Shown one piece after another: positions 13,015-30,033 of a DNA stretch of 32,000 bases (the first letter of the stretch is position 1; the number at the start of each line of letters is the position of its first letter). The DNA comes from Bacillus subtilis subsp. subtilis str. 168 (GTDB taxonomy: Bacteria; Bacillota; Bacilli; Bacillales; Bacillaceae), in the NCBI RefSeq assembly GCF_000009045.1, contig NC_000964.3:2190001-2222000 (forward strand). The letters are read 5' to 3'. The notes beneath the pieces are model-generated. The model was not told the origin of the DNA, ran no database searches, and saw nothing but the letters and a program-made list of their open reading frames with translations. A program made the position numbers and the translations under genes.

Positions 13015-13021
13015 CTCCTAT

Positions 13022-13041
13022 ATACATATTATTTGTATTTG
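13022..13041 (-). promoter_or_regulatory. SPBRE-type repeat copy (operator-like), between the yopV -10 box and SD
   Basis: ATACATATTATTTGTATTTG, with inverted half-sites ATACA/TGTAT. This is one of six copies in the window. Confidence 0.75.
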
Positions 13042-14028: not shown

Positions 14029-14144
14029 TCCTCCTTAGTAAACCATATGGTTTACATGACCATCTTACTACATTTAAACATGTATTTAAAGTGATTATTT
14101 TGTCTATTTTTGTCGAAATGCGAATTTTTTCACAATTTTTTGAG

Positions 14145-14191: not shown

Positions 14192-15169
14192 TTAAATGGT
14201 CGTCTCTTTTAGACCTAGTTCTTCTGCGTAATATTTATTAACTTCTTCCTCATTAATATAATCTTGCATTGAATAAACTGCTCGATATTTGGATTTTACC
14301 CTTAAATTAAAGTCATCTATAATCTGATACCTTACAGAGTTATCAATAACCCCTTTTTCTTTATAAAGCTGATATGCTCTATACAAATGACCAGATCTAA
14401 CAATAGTATTTGGTGTTAAAAAGTTAATTTTAAAGAACTCAGATATATCAGTAATTAGATTAGTTATGACAAATTTACTTGCTTGGCCGTCTCCTTTGTT
14501 GGACGTTCTTTTTGTTTTAACTACATAATCATTTTCAACTAAAAAGACTTCTTTTGTTTGGCCTTTTGCCTTCCCATTCTTTAATTTATATTTAGTTTCC
14601 TGAGCTGCATTTAAGGCAATAACAAGACATTCACTACTAACTTTTAGTTTTCGTTCACCGTGCTTTGAATCATAGAGGGTTAAAACGTTACCGTTAAGCA
14701 TTGCATCCTCAACTTGCTTCTTCGTTAAACTTAGCAATTCAGAATGAGCTAAACCAGAAACTCCTTCAAAAAGTAGTCTTAACACAGCCTTAGATTGATA
14801 ATTAACTAATTGATTTTCCATTTCCTCTAATTCACTATAAGTAATATATAATTTTTTGTCCCCGAGACATTCATAAAGCTCTTCTTCAGAAATAGTTCTT
14901 GCTAAATTGGTTAATCCTTTACTTAACTTATATGAAATTGCCCAATCAATATACAATGACAATAATGCTAAGGTTCTTCGAACACTACCGATAGTGGTTT
15001 GATCGAATGATCGTATAAGTTCTAAAATTTGCATTGATGTGAAATCATAAATGTCTTTATTATATAAAGTCTCAGTAATCTCTGCTTTTGCAAAAATAGG
15101 CCTCATCTGCATAACCATACCCTCAGATAAGGTATCTAAATATTTTTCCTTAATCTCACTATTGAACAT
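14192..15169 (-). CDS. yopR: Master lysogeny repressor with a degenerate tyrosine-recombinase fold (MrpR/SroF), 325 aa
   Basis: The track start TTG 15181 abuts AGGAG, so I reset to ATG 15169 (MFNSEIKEKY...). LLFEGVSGLAHSELLSLTKKQV resembles recombinase box I but lacks the catalytic Arg. Recognised as SPbeta YopR. Confidence 0.85.
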   Translation of the reverse strand: MFNSEIKEKYLDTLSEGMVMQMRPIFAKAEITETLYNKDIYDFTSMQILELIRSFDQTTIGSVRRTLALLSLYIDWAISYKLSKGLTNLARTISEEELYECLGDKKLYITYSELEEMENQLVNYQSKAVLRLLFEGVSGLAHSELLSLTKKQVEDAMLNGNVLTLYDSKHGERKLKVSSECLVIALNAAQETKYKLKNGKAKGQTKEVFLVENDYVVKTKRTSNKGDGQASKFVITNLITDISEFFKINFLTPNTIVRSGHLYRAYQLYKEKGVIDNSVRYQIIDDFNLRVKSKYRAVYSMQDYINEEEVNKYYAEELGLKETTI

Positions 15170-18007: not shown

Positions 18008-18328
18008 TTATGGTTGATAAATAAACTCTTCAAATTCAATTGCAATGTGTCGTTTTAAATTCTTCACAAAATGTATTAGGGATCTAAAATGCGGATTATT
18101 TTCAATGCTTCTTTTTAATCCATCTCCACCTAATAATACTCTATTTAGATCTTTTAATAATGCTGCTATCTCTATTTTTGCACCATGTAGATCATCTTCA
18201 GTTTTTGCATTAACAATCATTTTCCTAATGTTTAGTACACTCTCTATGTAAGTTTGTTTAGCATTTAATACAAAATCGGCATCAATATCTTTATGATTTG
18301 TAGACCTAAGTTCTACAACATGCATCAT
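18008..18328 (-). CDS. yopN: Hypothetical helical protein, 106 aa
   Basis: The ATG overlaps the yopM stop (TAATG). SD GGAGGA. Confidence 0.75.
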
Positions 18329-18528
18329 TAATCCTCCTTGTATTCGCTTAGCAATTTCATGTATCCTTTAGTTAGTTGTTTTCGAACATTTTCATTCTTC
18401 ATTATTTTTGACTTTTCAATGCTTTTTTCATGAAAAAACAAATCATTTTTAACTAAGCTTTCAACTTTCTTTTGGTAAATGGTTTTATGCATTGTCATAC
18501 TGTTTTTTAAGTAACTAATTGCGGACAT
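18328..18528 (-). CDS. yopM: Hypothetical helical protein, 66 aa
   Basis: SD TAGGAGGTTGG upstream of ATG 18528. Confidence 0.75.
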
Positions 18529-18544
18529 ACCACCAACCTCCTAT

Positions 18545-18565
18545 ATACATATTTTTTATCTTTTG
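18545..18565 (-). promoter_or_regulatory. Degenerate SPBRE-type repeat abutting the yopM SD
   Basis: ATACATATTTTTTATCTTTTG. The first 13 nt are identical to the consensus, and the right half-site is degenerate. Confidence 0.5.
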
Positions 18566-18705
18566 CATCTATAGCAATTGTAATGCATTACAAAAGGGAA
18601 GTAAAGATTTTTTTAACGACAAATAGCACATTCTACGCAATTTTTTTGCGAATGTGCTGCTTTGTAATGCATTTCATTTAATTAGGGTGTATGTATTTGA
18701 AGTTG
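18566..18705 (-). ncRNA. aimX: AimR-controlled leader / aimX-equivalent transcript region (boundaries approximate)
   Basis: This 140-nt stretch lies between the operator and yopM and has no SD-led ORF. It holds a long hairpin (18625-18658) flanked by TTGTAATGCA motifs. By analogy, arbitrium aimX lies directly downstream of the AimR site. Confidence 0.35.
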
Positions 18706-18742
18706 ATCACTAGATGTTATTAAAACCTAATATTTAAGTGAT
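18706..18742. promoter_or_regulatory. AimR operator: ATCACT-N25-AGTGAT
   Basis: Perfect 6-bp inverted repeats at 18706-18711 and 18737-18742, separated by 25 bp, just downstream of the aimP terminator. This matches the spaced site I recall for SPbeta AimR. Confidence 0.75.
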
Positions 18743-18756
18743 GGCCTTAAAACTAC

Positions 18757-18790
18757 AAAAGACGCTTAGCTCAAAAGAGCCAAACGTCTT
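18757..18790 (-). terminator. Intrinsic terminator after aimP
   Basis: On the minus RNA: GACGUUUGGCUC-UUUU-GAGCUAAGCGUC then UUUUGUAGUUUU. Two G-U pairs become C-A mismatches on the plus strand, so the hairpin is minus-strand specific. Confidence 0.75.
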
Positions 18791-18854
18791 CCTTTTCTCT
18801 GTTTAATTTAATTAAATAAATAATAATACTAATAACTTTATGTGTCAATGGATT

Positions 18855-18980
18855 TTATGCTCCACGTGGCATTCCAGCAACCTCATAATCACCTGAAGCT
18901 TGTTGGATTGAAGAATCTGCACTTATGTAAGAAGTGCCTAGTGCGCCCAAGATAACTAAAGCCATAATAAGTTTTTTCAT
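18855..18980 (-). CDS. aimP: Arbitrium pro-peptide, 41 aa (mature signal = C-terminal GMPRGA)
   Basis: Untracked ORF MKKLIMALVILGALGTSYISADSSIQQASGDYEVAGMPRGA. SD AAAGGAGGTGA. It has a Sec signal peptide and lies 13 nt downstream of aimR. Confidence 0.92.
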   Translation of the reverse strand: MKKLIMALVILGALGTSYISADSSIQQASGDYEVAGMPRGA

Positions 18981-18993
18981 TGTCTCACCTCCT

Positions 18994-20154
18994 TTAAAGT
19001 AAAAGTAATTCTAAAAGTTTTTGATTTTCACCCATCTTTTGCAGTTCTAACAGTGGCAGCCTAATAAGGAATTTGTCATTAGACTTTTTAAAATACTCGA
19101 TTGAAGAATAGAAACATGCTTTATTTTGTTCGAGTCTTCCTTTCAAATAATAATGCATTGCAAGCTCATTATCGTTGTGAACTAAAAGATCTAGTTTATC
19201 CAAAACTTCTTTTGCTTTGGAATTTTCATTAAAGTTGATAAAACAATGAGCTTGCTCCTGCAAATCCATAATTGAATCAGATTCAAAATTAATCCACTTA
19301 TTTTCTTTGCGCCATACATTATTTAAGAAGCACAAAGCCTGCTGGAAAATCATGTTGTAATTTTCATTTTGAACAGAAATGCTTAGCCCTTTTAAAAAGT
19401 TTTCTTGAGCCAATTCATAATTCGAAAATAATAGAGAGTTGCCAATAGTTAAGTAGCTGAAAACCTGAAATCTCAGGATATTTGTACTTTCCAATGCCTT
19501 TTTAGAGTACTCTCTGCACTCCTCTAATGAATTTTCATTTAACTTTATATTAGACATTAGAACATGAACTCTTGTTTGATATGTATTTCTAATGTACATG
19601 TTCTCAGAAATCTCACTTAGGTCAATTTGTTTTATAAGTTGGGCCATCGGAGAAAAGTTACCAGTGCTTAAATAATGATAAAGCAGCAAGAGTCTTGAGA
19701 AAGAATTCATTTCAGGTGTTTTTATATTTAATTTGCCGAGTCTTTTCACTGCCTCAAATTCAGTAATAACACTGTTAGACAGTTCTCTATGTATTTTATA
19801 CACTTTTCCATATTCTTTACTTTTCATATTGCTGCAAGAAATCATTGAATCTATTAAAACATCTTCTATTTCAAAAAACATATTTGCATCAGCATACTCC
19901 AATGCACTTCTTGCTGCCTTTGTCTTAACATCTAGGTTTAAACAGTAATCTTTCATTAATTCATATTCACGGTCTGGATACTGACTCTTAACAATGTTGA
20001 CTATTGAAGAAAATTCATTAAATGTTTTCCCATCATGGTTTAAGAAGTCATAAAGAGGATTGGGGTTTTTAAGGCCAGCTACTGTTGCCCATTTATTCAT
20101 TAAAGAGTTGTCATTTTCCAAGTCTTTCTTCATAGCTATCCTTATTAACTCCAT
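18994..20154 (-). CDS. aimR: Arbitrium receptor / transcription regulator (N-terminal HTH plus TPR-like peptide-binding domain), 386 aa
   Basis: Track ORF MELIRIAMKKDLEN... It is all-helical and repeat-rich, with RRNPP-like architecture, and is recognised as SPbeta AimR (yopK). SD GAGGGGA. Confidence 0.92.
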   Translation of the reverse strand: MELIRIAMKKDLENDNSLMNKWATVAGLKNPNPLYDFLNHDGKTFNEFSSIVNIVKSQYPDREYELMKDYCLNLDVKTKAARSALEYADANMFFEIEDVLIDSMISCSNMKSKEYGKVYKIHRELSNSVITEFEAVKRLGKLNIKTPEMNSFSRLLLLYHYLSTGNFSPMAQLIKQIDLSEISENMYIRNTYQTRVHVLMSNIKLNENSLEECREYSKKALESTNILRFQVFSYLTIGNSLLFSNYELAQENFLKGLSISVQNENYNMIFQQALCFLNNVWRKENKWINFESDSIMDLQEQAHCFINFNENSKAKEVLDKLDLLVHNDNELAMHYYLKGRLEQNKACFYSSIEYFKKSNDKFLIRLPLLELQKMGENQKLLELLLL

Positions 20155-20197
20155 TATTTCCCCTCATTTCTTTTTGTTGTCTTTATTGGTTAACTTA

Positions 20198-20226
20198 ATA
20201 ATACTATAGATCACATTACGAGTCAA
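20198..20226 (-). promoter_or_regulatory. SigmaA-type promoter of aimR-aimP
   Basis: On the minus strand: TTGACT, 17 nt, TATTAT. Confidence 0.65.
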
Positions 20227-20233
20227 TTATTTT

Positions 20234-20253
20234 ATACATATTTTTTGTATTTG
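20234..20253 (-). promoter_or_regulatory. SPBRE-type repeat copy, 7 nt upstream of the aimR -35 box
   Basis: ATACATATTTTTTGTATTTG, identical to the consensus. Confidence 0.75.
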
Positions 20254-20283
20254 TAATCTCTTTAAAATTCCAATTTTAACTAG

Positions 20284-20311
20284 ACACAATGAGGACTAAA
20301 CCTCATTGTGT
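20284..20311 (-). terminator. Hairpin after yopJ
   Basis: ACACAATGAGG-6 nt-CCTCATTGTGT forms an 11-bp stem. The U-tract is weak. Confidence 0.5.
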
Positions 20312-20330
20312 TCTTCTAAAGCAAAAGGTC

Positions 20331-20747
20331 CTACTTAAGGCTATAATACACCTCTTCCGCAATATCCTTTGCAAACCTAGCGAAAATTTCTCTATCAAAA
20401 CTTCTTAAGCATTTAGCTAAGGACAGGATATTCTGCACATGGTCAAGTGTATTAGTCAAATCTAATGCCGTTACCAAAGAAAGCAACATGTCTTTGTAGT
20501 TCATATCTCCGGCAACGCCTTTATAAACCACATGTTGCCGTTCATCGAAAACTGGGGCATTCTCAGATAGGTGTATATCAAATTTCGCAGCGATATCCTC
20601 CCGCTCTATAGATATCAACTCTTTAATTAACTCTACTAATTGCTGTTCACTCAAATTAGAATAACTTGCTCTCAATAAATTAAAGGAATCAACACCTATT
20701 TCACCATGGAGGTCTTCCCATCTAAAATATAAAAATGTGTTTTTCAT
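20331..20747 (-). CDS. yopJ: Hypothetical protein, 138 aa
   Basis: Track ORF with SD GGGGAG. It starts 1 nt after the yopI stop. Confidence 0.7.
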   Translation of the reverse strand: MKNTFLYFRWEDLHGEIGVDSFNLLRASYSNLSEQQLVELIKELISIEREDIAAKFDIHLSENAPVFDERQHVVYKGVAGDMNYKDMLLSLVTALDLTNTLDHVQNILSLAKCLRSFDREIFARFAKDIAEEVYYSLK

Positions 20748-27639: not shown

Positions 27640-27659
27640 TTTAACTACCTCCTGTTTTT

Positions 27660-27679
27660 ATACATATTATTTGTATTTG
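27660..27679 (-). promoter_or_regulatory. SPBRE-type repeat, promoter-proximal copy (between -10 and SD of yonX)
   Basis: ATACATATTATTTGTATTTG. Confidence 0.75.
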
Positions 27680-27716: not shown

Positions 27717-27723
27717 TAATTAA

Positions 27724-27743
27724 ATACATATTTTTTGTATTTG
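27724..27743 (-). promoter_or_regulatory. SPBRE-type repeat, distal copy (7 nt upstream of the yonX -35 box)
   Basis: ATACATATTTTTTGTATTTG. Confidence 0.75.
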
Positions 27744-29996: not shown

Positions 29997-30013
29997 TAAT
30001 TCATGATTTTTAT

Positions 30014-30033
30014 ATACATATTTTTTATATTTG
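30014..30033 (-). promoter_or_regulatory. SPBRE-type repeat over the -35 region of yonT
   Basis: ATACATATTTTTTATATTTG, with one mismatch in the right half-site. Confidence 0.65.

Follow-up and report, generated by a model that had tools for sequence, protein, structure and literature searches.

What does the compact arrangement of genes and signals at positions 18,566 to 20,253 of this DNA do, has it been seen before, and by what means does it exert its effect? The DNA is a 32,000-nucleotide stretch of the chromosome of Bacillus subtilis subsp. subtilis str. 168 (NC_000964.3, positions 2,190,001 to 2,222,000), and by 'the window' we mean that whole stretch, counted from its first letter. We regard it as virtually certain that the arrangement is the arbitrium lysis-lysogeny module of the wild-type B. 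subtilis phage SPbeta: the receptor gene aimR, the pro-peptide gene aimP, a terminator, an operator and the non-coding aimX. The system is already known. It is a published arbitrium module, it was recognized correctly in a preliminary description made from the sequence alone, and there is no new finding in its identification.

The SPbeta arbitrium system was reportedly described by Erez et al. in 2017. What the window holds is the type example of arbitrium, sequenced in 1999, described in 2017, and with structures solved in 2018–2019. Arbitrium is remarkable in that a secreted peptide lets a virus sense prior infections and choose lysogeny. The value of the locus here is that of a positive control: receptor, pro-peptide, terminator and operator could all be recognized from raw sequence.

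Identity of the locus

Compared by megablast, positions 18300-20400 are 100% identical over 2101 nt to Bacillus phage SPBc2 (SPbeta), in whose record two of the open reading frames (ORFs) are annotated as yopK and yopL; the locus is carried by 13 phage records in all. The window as a whole corresponds to SPBc2 positions 96448..64449, and 31,999 of its 32,000 bases agree. The sole mismatch lies at window position 14763, in codon 136 of yopR, which is GGA, for Gly, in the window, where SPBc2 has GAA, for Glu. Change of this glycine to glutamate (G136E) in the repressor is the c2 heat-sensitive mutation (PMC10516654), and the glycine at this codon therefore marks the window as wild-type SPbeta, as it is found in B. 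subtilis 168, rather than the c2 mutant.

The preliminary description had assigned the stretch to the AimR/AimP pair of SPbeta-group phages, as a system already described, and so it proves: besides the complete identity with SPBc2, the two proteins pass curated models for AimR and AimP, and nothing in the sequence speaks against the arbitrium assignment. What we show here is the sequence identity and the anatomy; that the peptide binds, that AimR leaves its footprint on the operator and that it antiterminates was established in the literature, with exactly the same sequence.

The receptor and its peptide

The 386-aa receptor ORF that had been proposed on the minus strand was found exactly where it was expected, and its stop codon, TAA, occupies 18996-18994. 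Its product is identical over 386 of 386 residues to the protein chains in PDB entries 5ZW5, 6HP3, 5XYB and 6JG5, deposited as AimR/YopK, which settles the matter of its similarity to AimR. It also matches the Pfam AimR family PF22871 (E = 3.8e-109; 365 bits against a cut-off of 26.7), the domain spanning residues 63-373, and passes the NCBIfam equivalog NF038310 (272 bits against a cut-off of 70). The protein had been described as tetratricopeptide repeat (TPR)-like, with an N-terminal helix-turn-helix (HTH). That it is AimR is upheld, and so is the HTH, with the difference that the latter is known from the solved structures of the identical protein, since the Pfam search finds no separate HTH model in it. 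A TPR_8 match in Pfam falls below threshold (18.1 bits against a cut-off of 25.7), and apart from the AimR models no RRNPP model in Pfam or NCBIfam matches. AimR was placed in the RRNPP family, likewise, from solved structures of this same protein (PMC6458997); the layout of receptor and pro-peptide had been noted at the outset as RRNPP-like.

Thirteen nucleotides 3' of aimR lies the predicted 41-codon ORF, its ATG beginning at 18980 and the aimR stop ending at 18994. It is preceded by the Shine-Dalgarno sequence AAAGGAGGTGA (18995-18985), and it translates to MKKLIMALVILGALGTSYISADSSIQQASGDYEVAGMPRGA. RefSeq labels the product 'lysogeny pheromone peptide AimP', and it passes the NCBIfam model AimP_fam, NF033802 (70.1 bits against a cut-off of 35). 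The N-terminus has the layout expected of a Sec signal peptide followed by a short pro-region, as had been suggested: MKK is followed by a hydrophobic core of 12 residues (mean Kyte-Doolittle value over nine residues <=3.1) and then by ISA|D, where cleavage would fall.

The last six codons of aimP (18875..18858) encode GMPRGA, a hexapeptide of the xxxRGA type, which had been put forward as the mature signal. Published binding to this exact AimR supports it (PMC6458997): the apparent dissociation constant is 53.8 nM, and in electrophoretic mobility shift assays (EMSA) AimR is released from DNA by GMPRGA and not by SAIRGA (PMC6458997). In vivo, SPbeta induction is blocked by added peptide (PMC13220667), and the phenotypes of delta-aimR and delta-aimP phages have been described (PMC8612738).

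Terminator, operator and antitermination

Downstream of aimP lies an intrinsic terminator. Its stem (18792..18757) comprises 16 pairs, six of them G-C, and is followed by the tail GTAGTTTTAA; its predicted folding energy of -24.7 kcal/mol (z = -5.4) is reached by none of 200 shuffled sequences. The preliminary description had called this terminator specific to the minus strand, and the terminator scan calls it on that strand alone. A gap of 14 bp separates the end of the stem at 18757 from the start of the operator at 18742. The operator, ATCACT-N25-AGTGAT, was also noted from the sequence and is the sole match to this pattern in the window, where 0.04 would be expected. SPbeta AimR gives a DNase footprint on ATCACTAGATGTTATTAAAACCTAATATTTAAGTGAT (Gallego del Sol et al. 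2019, PMC6458997), which is letter for letter the plus-strand sequence at 18706-18742, and mutations in the operator hexamers abolish AimR binding (PMC6458997).

What does AimR do when bound there? The preliminary description had it that the receptor binds downstream of aimP and drives aimX. The binding stands; the activator view is out of date, AimR being now understood as an antiterminator that acts on the very terminator noticed in the sequence (PMC10769878). This is so in phi3T and SPbeta alike (Zamora-Caballero et al. 2024, PMC10769878). In phi3T there is no promoter downstream of the AimR operator; expression of aimX needs an upstream promoter, and AimR at the right distance from the terminator; and changing the terminator-operator distance by +69 bp or by -8 bp abolishes the effect of AimR (PMC10769878). 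Three evolved suppressors of SPbeta delta-aimR carry single-base changes in this same terminator (PMC10769878).

The classical model, in which AimR on its operator brings RNA polymerase to a promoter of aimX lying further downstream, comes naturally for an HTH protein that sits upstream of aimX, and papers up to 2023 describe such a promoter, 'PaimX' (PMC6458997, PMC10516654), but it is now scarcely credible: from the operator as far as the next stable stem-loop (hairpin 2) the promoter scan detects nothing promoter-like, the sole promoter-like site downstream (18605..18577) is weak, at 9/12, and some 100 bp off, the terminator-to-aimX fragment of phi3T is silent with or without AimR (PMC10769878), and SPbeta AimR has itself been demonstrated to be an antiterminator (PMC10769878).

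Antitermination, then, is the output, and the geometry offers a hint as to how it might come about. We infer that by the time polymerase stands at the U-tract it is touching the AimR on the operator, and that termination is disfavored by this contact; the published sensitivity to the terminator-operator distance points the same way. The cycle as a whole runs as follows. Going by the family literature on export and processing, AimP would be produced as a pre-pro-peptide of 41 aa, leave the cell through Sec and be cut down to GMPRGA outside it; the Opp permease then brings GMPRGA back in. So long as peptide is absent, a dimer of AimR occupies ATCACT-N25-AGTGAT and antiterminates, giving read-through into aimX and leading to lysis. 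Once GMPRGA accumulates and fills the TPR groove, AimR is held in a compact form, unable to span both hexamers; it leaves the DNA, transcription ends at the terminator, no aimX is made, and lysogeny, or maintenance of the prophage, is favored.

Some limits attach to this picture. In laboratory conditions arbitrium is a non-essential, fine-tuning device (Brady et al. 2021, PMC8612738). The published SPbeta reporter was driven by Pspank. And the AimP cleavage site at ISA|D was read from the sequence by eye.

Natural relatives and a specificity cassette

We aligned five phages overall, among them Goe11, Goe14 and SPbetaL4 (loci L002, L003 and L005), which were compared with SPbeta. In these three, AimR residues 1-126 are identical to those of SPbeta save for V99A in Goe11 and Goe14, whereas residues 127-386 are only ~50% identical. 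AimP differs too, its mature end being GIVRGA, and just past the aimP stop codon the DNA becomes near-identical again. The terminator and both operator hexamers are unchanged. The mosaic boundaries are sharp, one at about codon 127 of aimR (~19775) and the other shortly beyond the end of aimP (~18850), and so the peptide-binding part of aimR and aimP move as one recombination cassette. Brady et al. (2021, PMC8612738) described a 'chimeric AimR', and the swap seen here agrees with it. Such natural swaps support a division of labor between the DNA-binding and the peptide-binding parts of AimR.

In Goe11, Goe14 and SPbetaL4 the 25-bp spacer of the operator differs from that of SPbeta at 2-3 positions; over the relatives compared it varies at 3-4 positions. 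The terminator stem is constant save for a base-of-stem change in one of the relatives (L133), and another (L134) has a 3-nt insertion in the loop. In two prophage contigs from IMG/VR (L130 and L139) the operator hexamer nearer the terminator reads GTCACT rather than ATCACT, a change at its position 1 (18742).

More distant versions of the region were sought in two ways. A distant blastn comparison of the aimP-yopM spacer with phages, aimed at diverged spacers, returned the same 13 records, all of them at least 95.8% identical. A search of IMG/VR for diverged spacers by way of the protein YopM, the product of the first gene after aimX, gave 15 loci, at 98-100% protein identity. The relatives are thus too similar for the structure of the aimX RNA to be tested by covariation. 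The operator itself, in the form CATCACT-N25-AGTGATC (14 bases), was looked for in 596 Gb of genome contigs; the matches listed are scattered over unrelated taxa (Pseudomonas, metagenome-assembled genomes, actinomycetes) and look like chance; the pattern is too short for 596 Gb, and we set them aside.

The aimX region

From the operator to the yopM ATG there are 177 nt (18705..18529), and the expectation of about 170 nt free of any ORF led by a Shine-Dalgarno sequence ahead of the regulatory operon holds good. The sole same-strand ORF of at least 20 codons wholly inside the region is a 23-codon ORF with a TTG start (18640..18569), which is without a Shine-Dalgarno sequence and is frameshifted by a 1-nt deletion at 18614 in one relative (L140). 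No Rfam family matches anywhere in 18300-20400 at E <= 1. Papers from 2023 to 2026 state that no clear ORF is present in the aimX of SPbeta, which they describe as an RNA acting by an unknown mechanism (among them PMC10516654 and PMC13220667).

Two features in or near the region deserve attention. One is hairpin 2, whose stem-loop (18658..18625) has a predicted free energy of -17.2 kcal/mol (z = -3.7), matched by none of 200 shuffles. The terminator scan does not call it. In relatives, its loop has A-runs of 7 to 10 nt, and a C>U change in the stem retains a G-U pair. Together with the AUUUGUCGUU that follows, hairpin 2 could be the 3' end of an aimX small RNA.

The other is a near-consensus candidate sigma-A promoter-like site, 18848..18820, between the aimP stop and the terminator. 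Its hexamers are unchanged in five of the five aligned phages, those with swapped cassettes included, and its -10 hexamer bears a single change (18822 T>C) in one of 19 sequences compared. Phi3T has a weaker promoter-like site, 9/12, at the same position. Sites as good as this number three in the window and 2.2 in shuffles, so that the match alone is not significant; it is its position and its conservation that are suggestive of a promoter. If it is one, it could start the antiterminated transcript independently of aimP.

How aimX might act

One reading, an unlikely one, has aimX masking the ribosome binding site (RBS) of yopM, also named sroA. The segment 5'-CAACUUC-AA-AUACAUA-3' (18705..18690) would pair with 5'-UAUGUAU-AUAG-GAGGUUG-3' (18551..18534), either in cis, within one read-through transcript, or in trans, with aimX as a separate small RNA. 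The result would be less YopM and, through translational coupling, less YopN, which promotes lysogeny. The fold predicted for the read-through RNA pairs four of the six bases of the yopM Shine-Dalgarno sequence with 18699-18702, at a probability of 0.99; on average, the Shine-Dalgarno bases have an unpaired probability of 0.33, compared with 0.64 in the transcript from the weak sro promoter. The yopM stop codon overlaps the yopN start; loss of function of yopN suppresses delta-aimR (PMC8612738); and the peptide is reported to activate yopMNOPQR (PMC10516654), all of which fits. The specificity of the pairing does not: as a target in trans, yopM comes no higher than 5th to 12th when 185 SPbeta translation-initiation regions are ordered by cofold free-energy difference, and four of 40 dinucleotide-shuffled aimX sequences pair with yopM at least equally well. 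Helix 1 of the proposed duplex is broken, without compensation, in relatives L134 (18700 T>C, 18699 C>A) and L138 (18537 G>T), and hairpin 2 may end the RNA before the yopM leader is reached. Covariation is of no help among relatives that are all at least 95.8% identical.

Other targets for aimX were also considered. The target search places yorO at the top, at -18.7 kcal/mol, yet six of 40 shuffles reach the best score and the result is not significant. Plain duplex prediction was dominated by long AT-rich pseudo-duplexes, and was abandoned.

A second reading, proposed by Zamora-Caballero et al. (PMC10769878), makes the aimX RNA a decoy substrate for the host endoribonuclease MazF. We think this very unlikely. 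MazEF has been published to affect the dynamics of SPbeta infection, and there is indeed one UACAU(A) site (18695..18691) within 18815-18529. One site in 287 nt is no enrichment, however, as about 0.5 would be expected from the density in the window (59 sites in 32 kb); the fold prediction has this one site base-paired; and MazEF is published to be without effect on SPbeta lysogenization, unlike that of phi3T.

That SPbeta aimX encodes a small protein effector, like the 51-aa MazE-like AimX of phi3T or the antirepressors of 'extended' arbitrium systems, would accord with the fact that aimX codes for protein in phi3T and in ~80% of arbitrium systems (PMC10769878, among others), and the 23-codon TTG ORF is there to do it, but the proposal is improbable in the extreme: that ORF lacks a Shine-Dalgarno sequence and starts inside a hairpin loop, the deletion at 18614 in L140 frameshifts it, the length of the A-run immediately upstream is not constant, and the SPbeta authors themselves report no clear ORF in aimX. 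We rejected the small-ORF reading for the missing Shine-Dalgarno sequence and the frameshift in a relative.

Returning to the masking of the yopM RBS, the pieces can be assembled into one scheme, although it must be counted a long shot. The promoter-like site at 18848..18820 would feed aimX without depending on transcription of aimP; the aimX segment 18705..18690 would mask both the Shine-Dalgarno sequence of the sroA/yopM leader and the SPBRE (SPbeta repeated element) that adjoins it, lowering YopM and YopN; and a pair of ATGCATTACAA sites, 84 bp apart, would provide a second layer of control at the sro promoter. Should this be true, the aimX RNA of SPbeta would be the counterpart of the AimX protein of phi3T, which inhibits the YopN homologue.

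Surrounding features

The features of the locus are collected in Table 1.

Table 1. Genes and signals of the SPbeta arbitrium locus and its immediate surroundings, in window positions
Feature	Position	Strand	Description and basis
aimR promoter-like site and SPBRE core	20198..20246	minus	TTGACT-17-TATTAT, 20226..20198, 10/12; SPBRE core AAAAAATATGTATA, 20246..20233, just upstream
aimR (yopK)	18994..20154	minus	386-aa arbitrium receptor, N-terminal HTH and TPR-like peptide-binding domain; ORF, PDB, Pfam, NCBIfam
aimP (yopL)	18855..18980	minus	41-aa pro-peptide; ORF, NCBIfam, RefSeq annotation, hydropathy
Candidate sigma-A promoter-like site	18820..18848	minus	TTGACA-17-TATTAT, 11/12; between aimP stop and terminator
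Intrinsic terminator	18747..18792	minus	Stem-loop 18792..18757 and U-rich tail; AimR antitermination target; SPBc2 annotation stem_loop
AimR operator	18706..18742	.	ATCACT, 25-bp AT-rich spacer, AGTGAT; identical to the footprinted, crystallized operator
aimX region	18529..18705	minus	177 nt, apparently non-coding in SPbeta; AimR-dependent read-through
Hairpin 2	18615..18658	minus	AGCACATTC-GCAA(A7)TTGC-GTA-GAATGTGCT, then AUUUGUCGUU; inverted repeat I9
16-bp perfect palindrome	18578..18593	.	TTGTAATGCATTACAA, upstream of yopM, overlapping the -10 of a weak promoter-like site (18605..18577, TTTACT-17-TACAAT); SPBc2 annotation 'palindrome'
SPBRE core in yopM/sroA leader	18544..18557	minus	AAAAAATATGTATA, directly upstream of Shine-Dalgarno AGGAGG, 18542..18537
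yopM (sroA)	18328..18528	minus	Opens the repressor operon sroA-F (yopMNOPQR); ORFs and annotation

The genes downstream of aimX—yopM, yopN, yopO (which matches HTH_3), yopP (integrase fold), yopQ and yopR—make up the sroA-F operon, the role of which has been described (PMC8612738, PMC10769878). At 18326-18330 the yopM stop overlaps a possible yopN start (TAATG), and the overlap suggests that the two genes may be translationally coupled. The yopN start is placed differently by different sources: the ORF list has the protein begin MMHVV, and RefSeq has it begin MHVV, one codon later.

The SPBRE is bound by the master repressor, variously named MrpR, YopR or SroF (PMC10516654). Binding of this protein to the SPBRE of the aimR promoter was found both by chromatin affinity precipitation and sequencing (ChAP-seq) and by EMSA, and a ChAP-seq peak was found at the yopM promoter as well (PMC10516654). 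A pattern search of the window for the core, AAA[AT]AATATGTAT[AT], finds copies on the minus strand at 13021-13034, 18544-18557, 20233-20246, 27659-27672, 27723-27736 and 30013-30026. Usually the core is preceded by CAAATAC, and several copies adjoin promoter-like sites or Shine-Dalgarno sequences. The copies in the window fit the published MrpR/SroF regulon, the aimR and yopM promoters included.

The perfect palindrome upstream of yopM has a second copy, with two mismatches, at 18662-18677, which is 84 bp, or eight helical turns, further upstream, with hairpin 2 lying between the two. Elsewhere in the SPbeta genome (134 kb) the motif is all but absent, a weak relative of it standing upstream of yorO. 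In RNA, the fold prediction pairs the two copies with each other. We found no report in the literature of a protein that binds the yopM palindrome. Another annotated palindrome, GTAAACCATATGGTTTAC (14038-14055), lies between yopR and yopS, and is unrelated to it in sequence; an extra operator recognized by AimR is mentioned for the yopR-yopS intergenic region by Brady et al. (PMC8612738).

Comparison with known systems

The SPbeta/SPBc2 arbitrium system, which belongs to the SPbeta-like clade 2, is the same locus: DNA, receptor and operator are identical, and there is no difference within 18300-20400. A further comparison is with Goe11, Goe14 and SPbetaL4, whose arbitrium systems are chimeric. 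Their operator hexamers are identical to those of SPbeta, and their terminator, aimX region and yopM nearly so, whereas their peptide, GIVRGA, is different and the peptide-binding domain of the receptor has diverged.

Phi3T has the same order of elements as SPbeta: aimR, aimP, terminator, 6-N25-6 operator, aimX, and then the six-gene sro operon. The antitermination mechanism is common to both (PMC10769878), and the gap between terminator and operator is 17 nt in phi3T against 14 nt in SPbeta. The AimR of phi3T is only ~40% identical to that of SPbeta, its operator hexamers are of the ATGTTC type rather than ATCACT, and its peptide is SAIRGA rather than GMPRGA. Different, too, is aimX, which in phi3T contains a 51-codon ORF for a MazE-like protein, led by a Shine-Dalgarno sequence, and in SPbeta has no such ORF.

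Further afield, the RRNPP quorum-sensing systems of Firmicutes—Rap-Phr, NprR-NprX, PlcR-PapR and PrgX—resemble AimR, going by its published structures, in having a cytoplasmic TPR receptor and an oligopeptide that is re-imported, and resemble SPbeta in having the peptide gene directly downstream, coding for a pro-peptide that is exported by Sec. PlcR and PrgX share with AimR the N-terminal HTH as well. AimR differs from these relatives in being encoded by a phage, and in the spacer of its operator, which at 25 bp is unusually long and is contacted by the TPR domain. It differs also in what it does with the DNA once bound: its output is antitermination rather than activation of a promoter.

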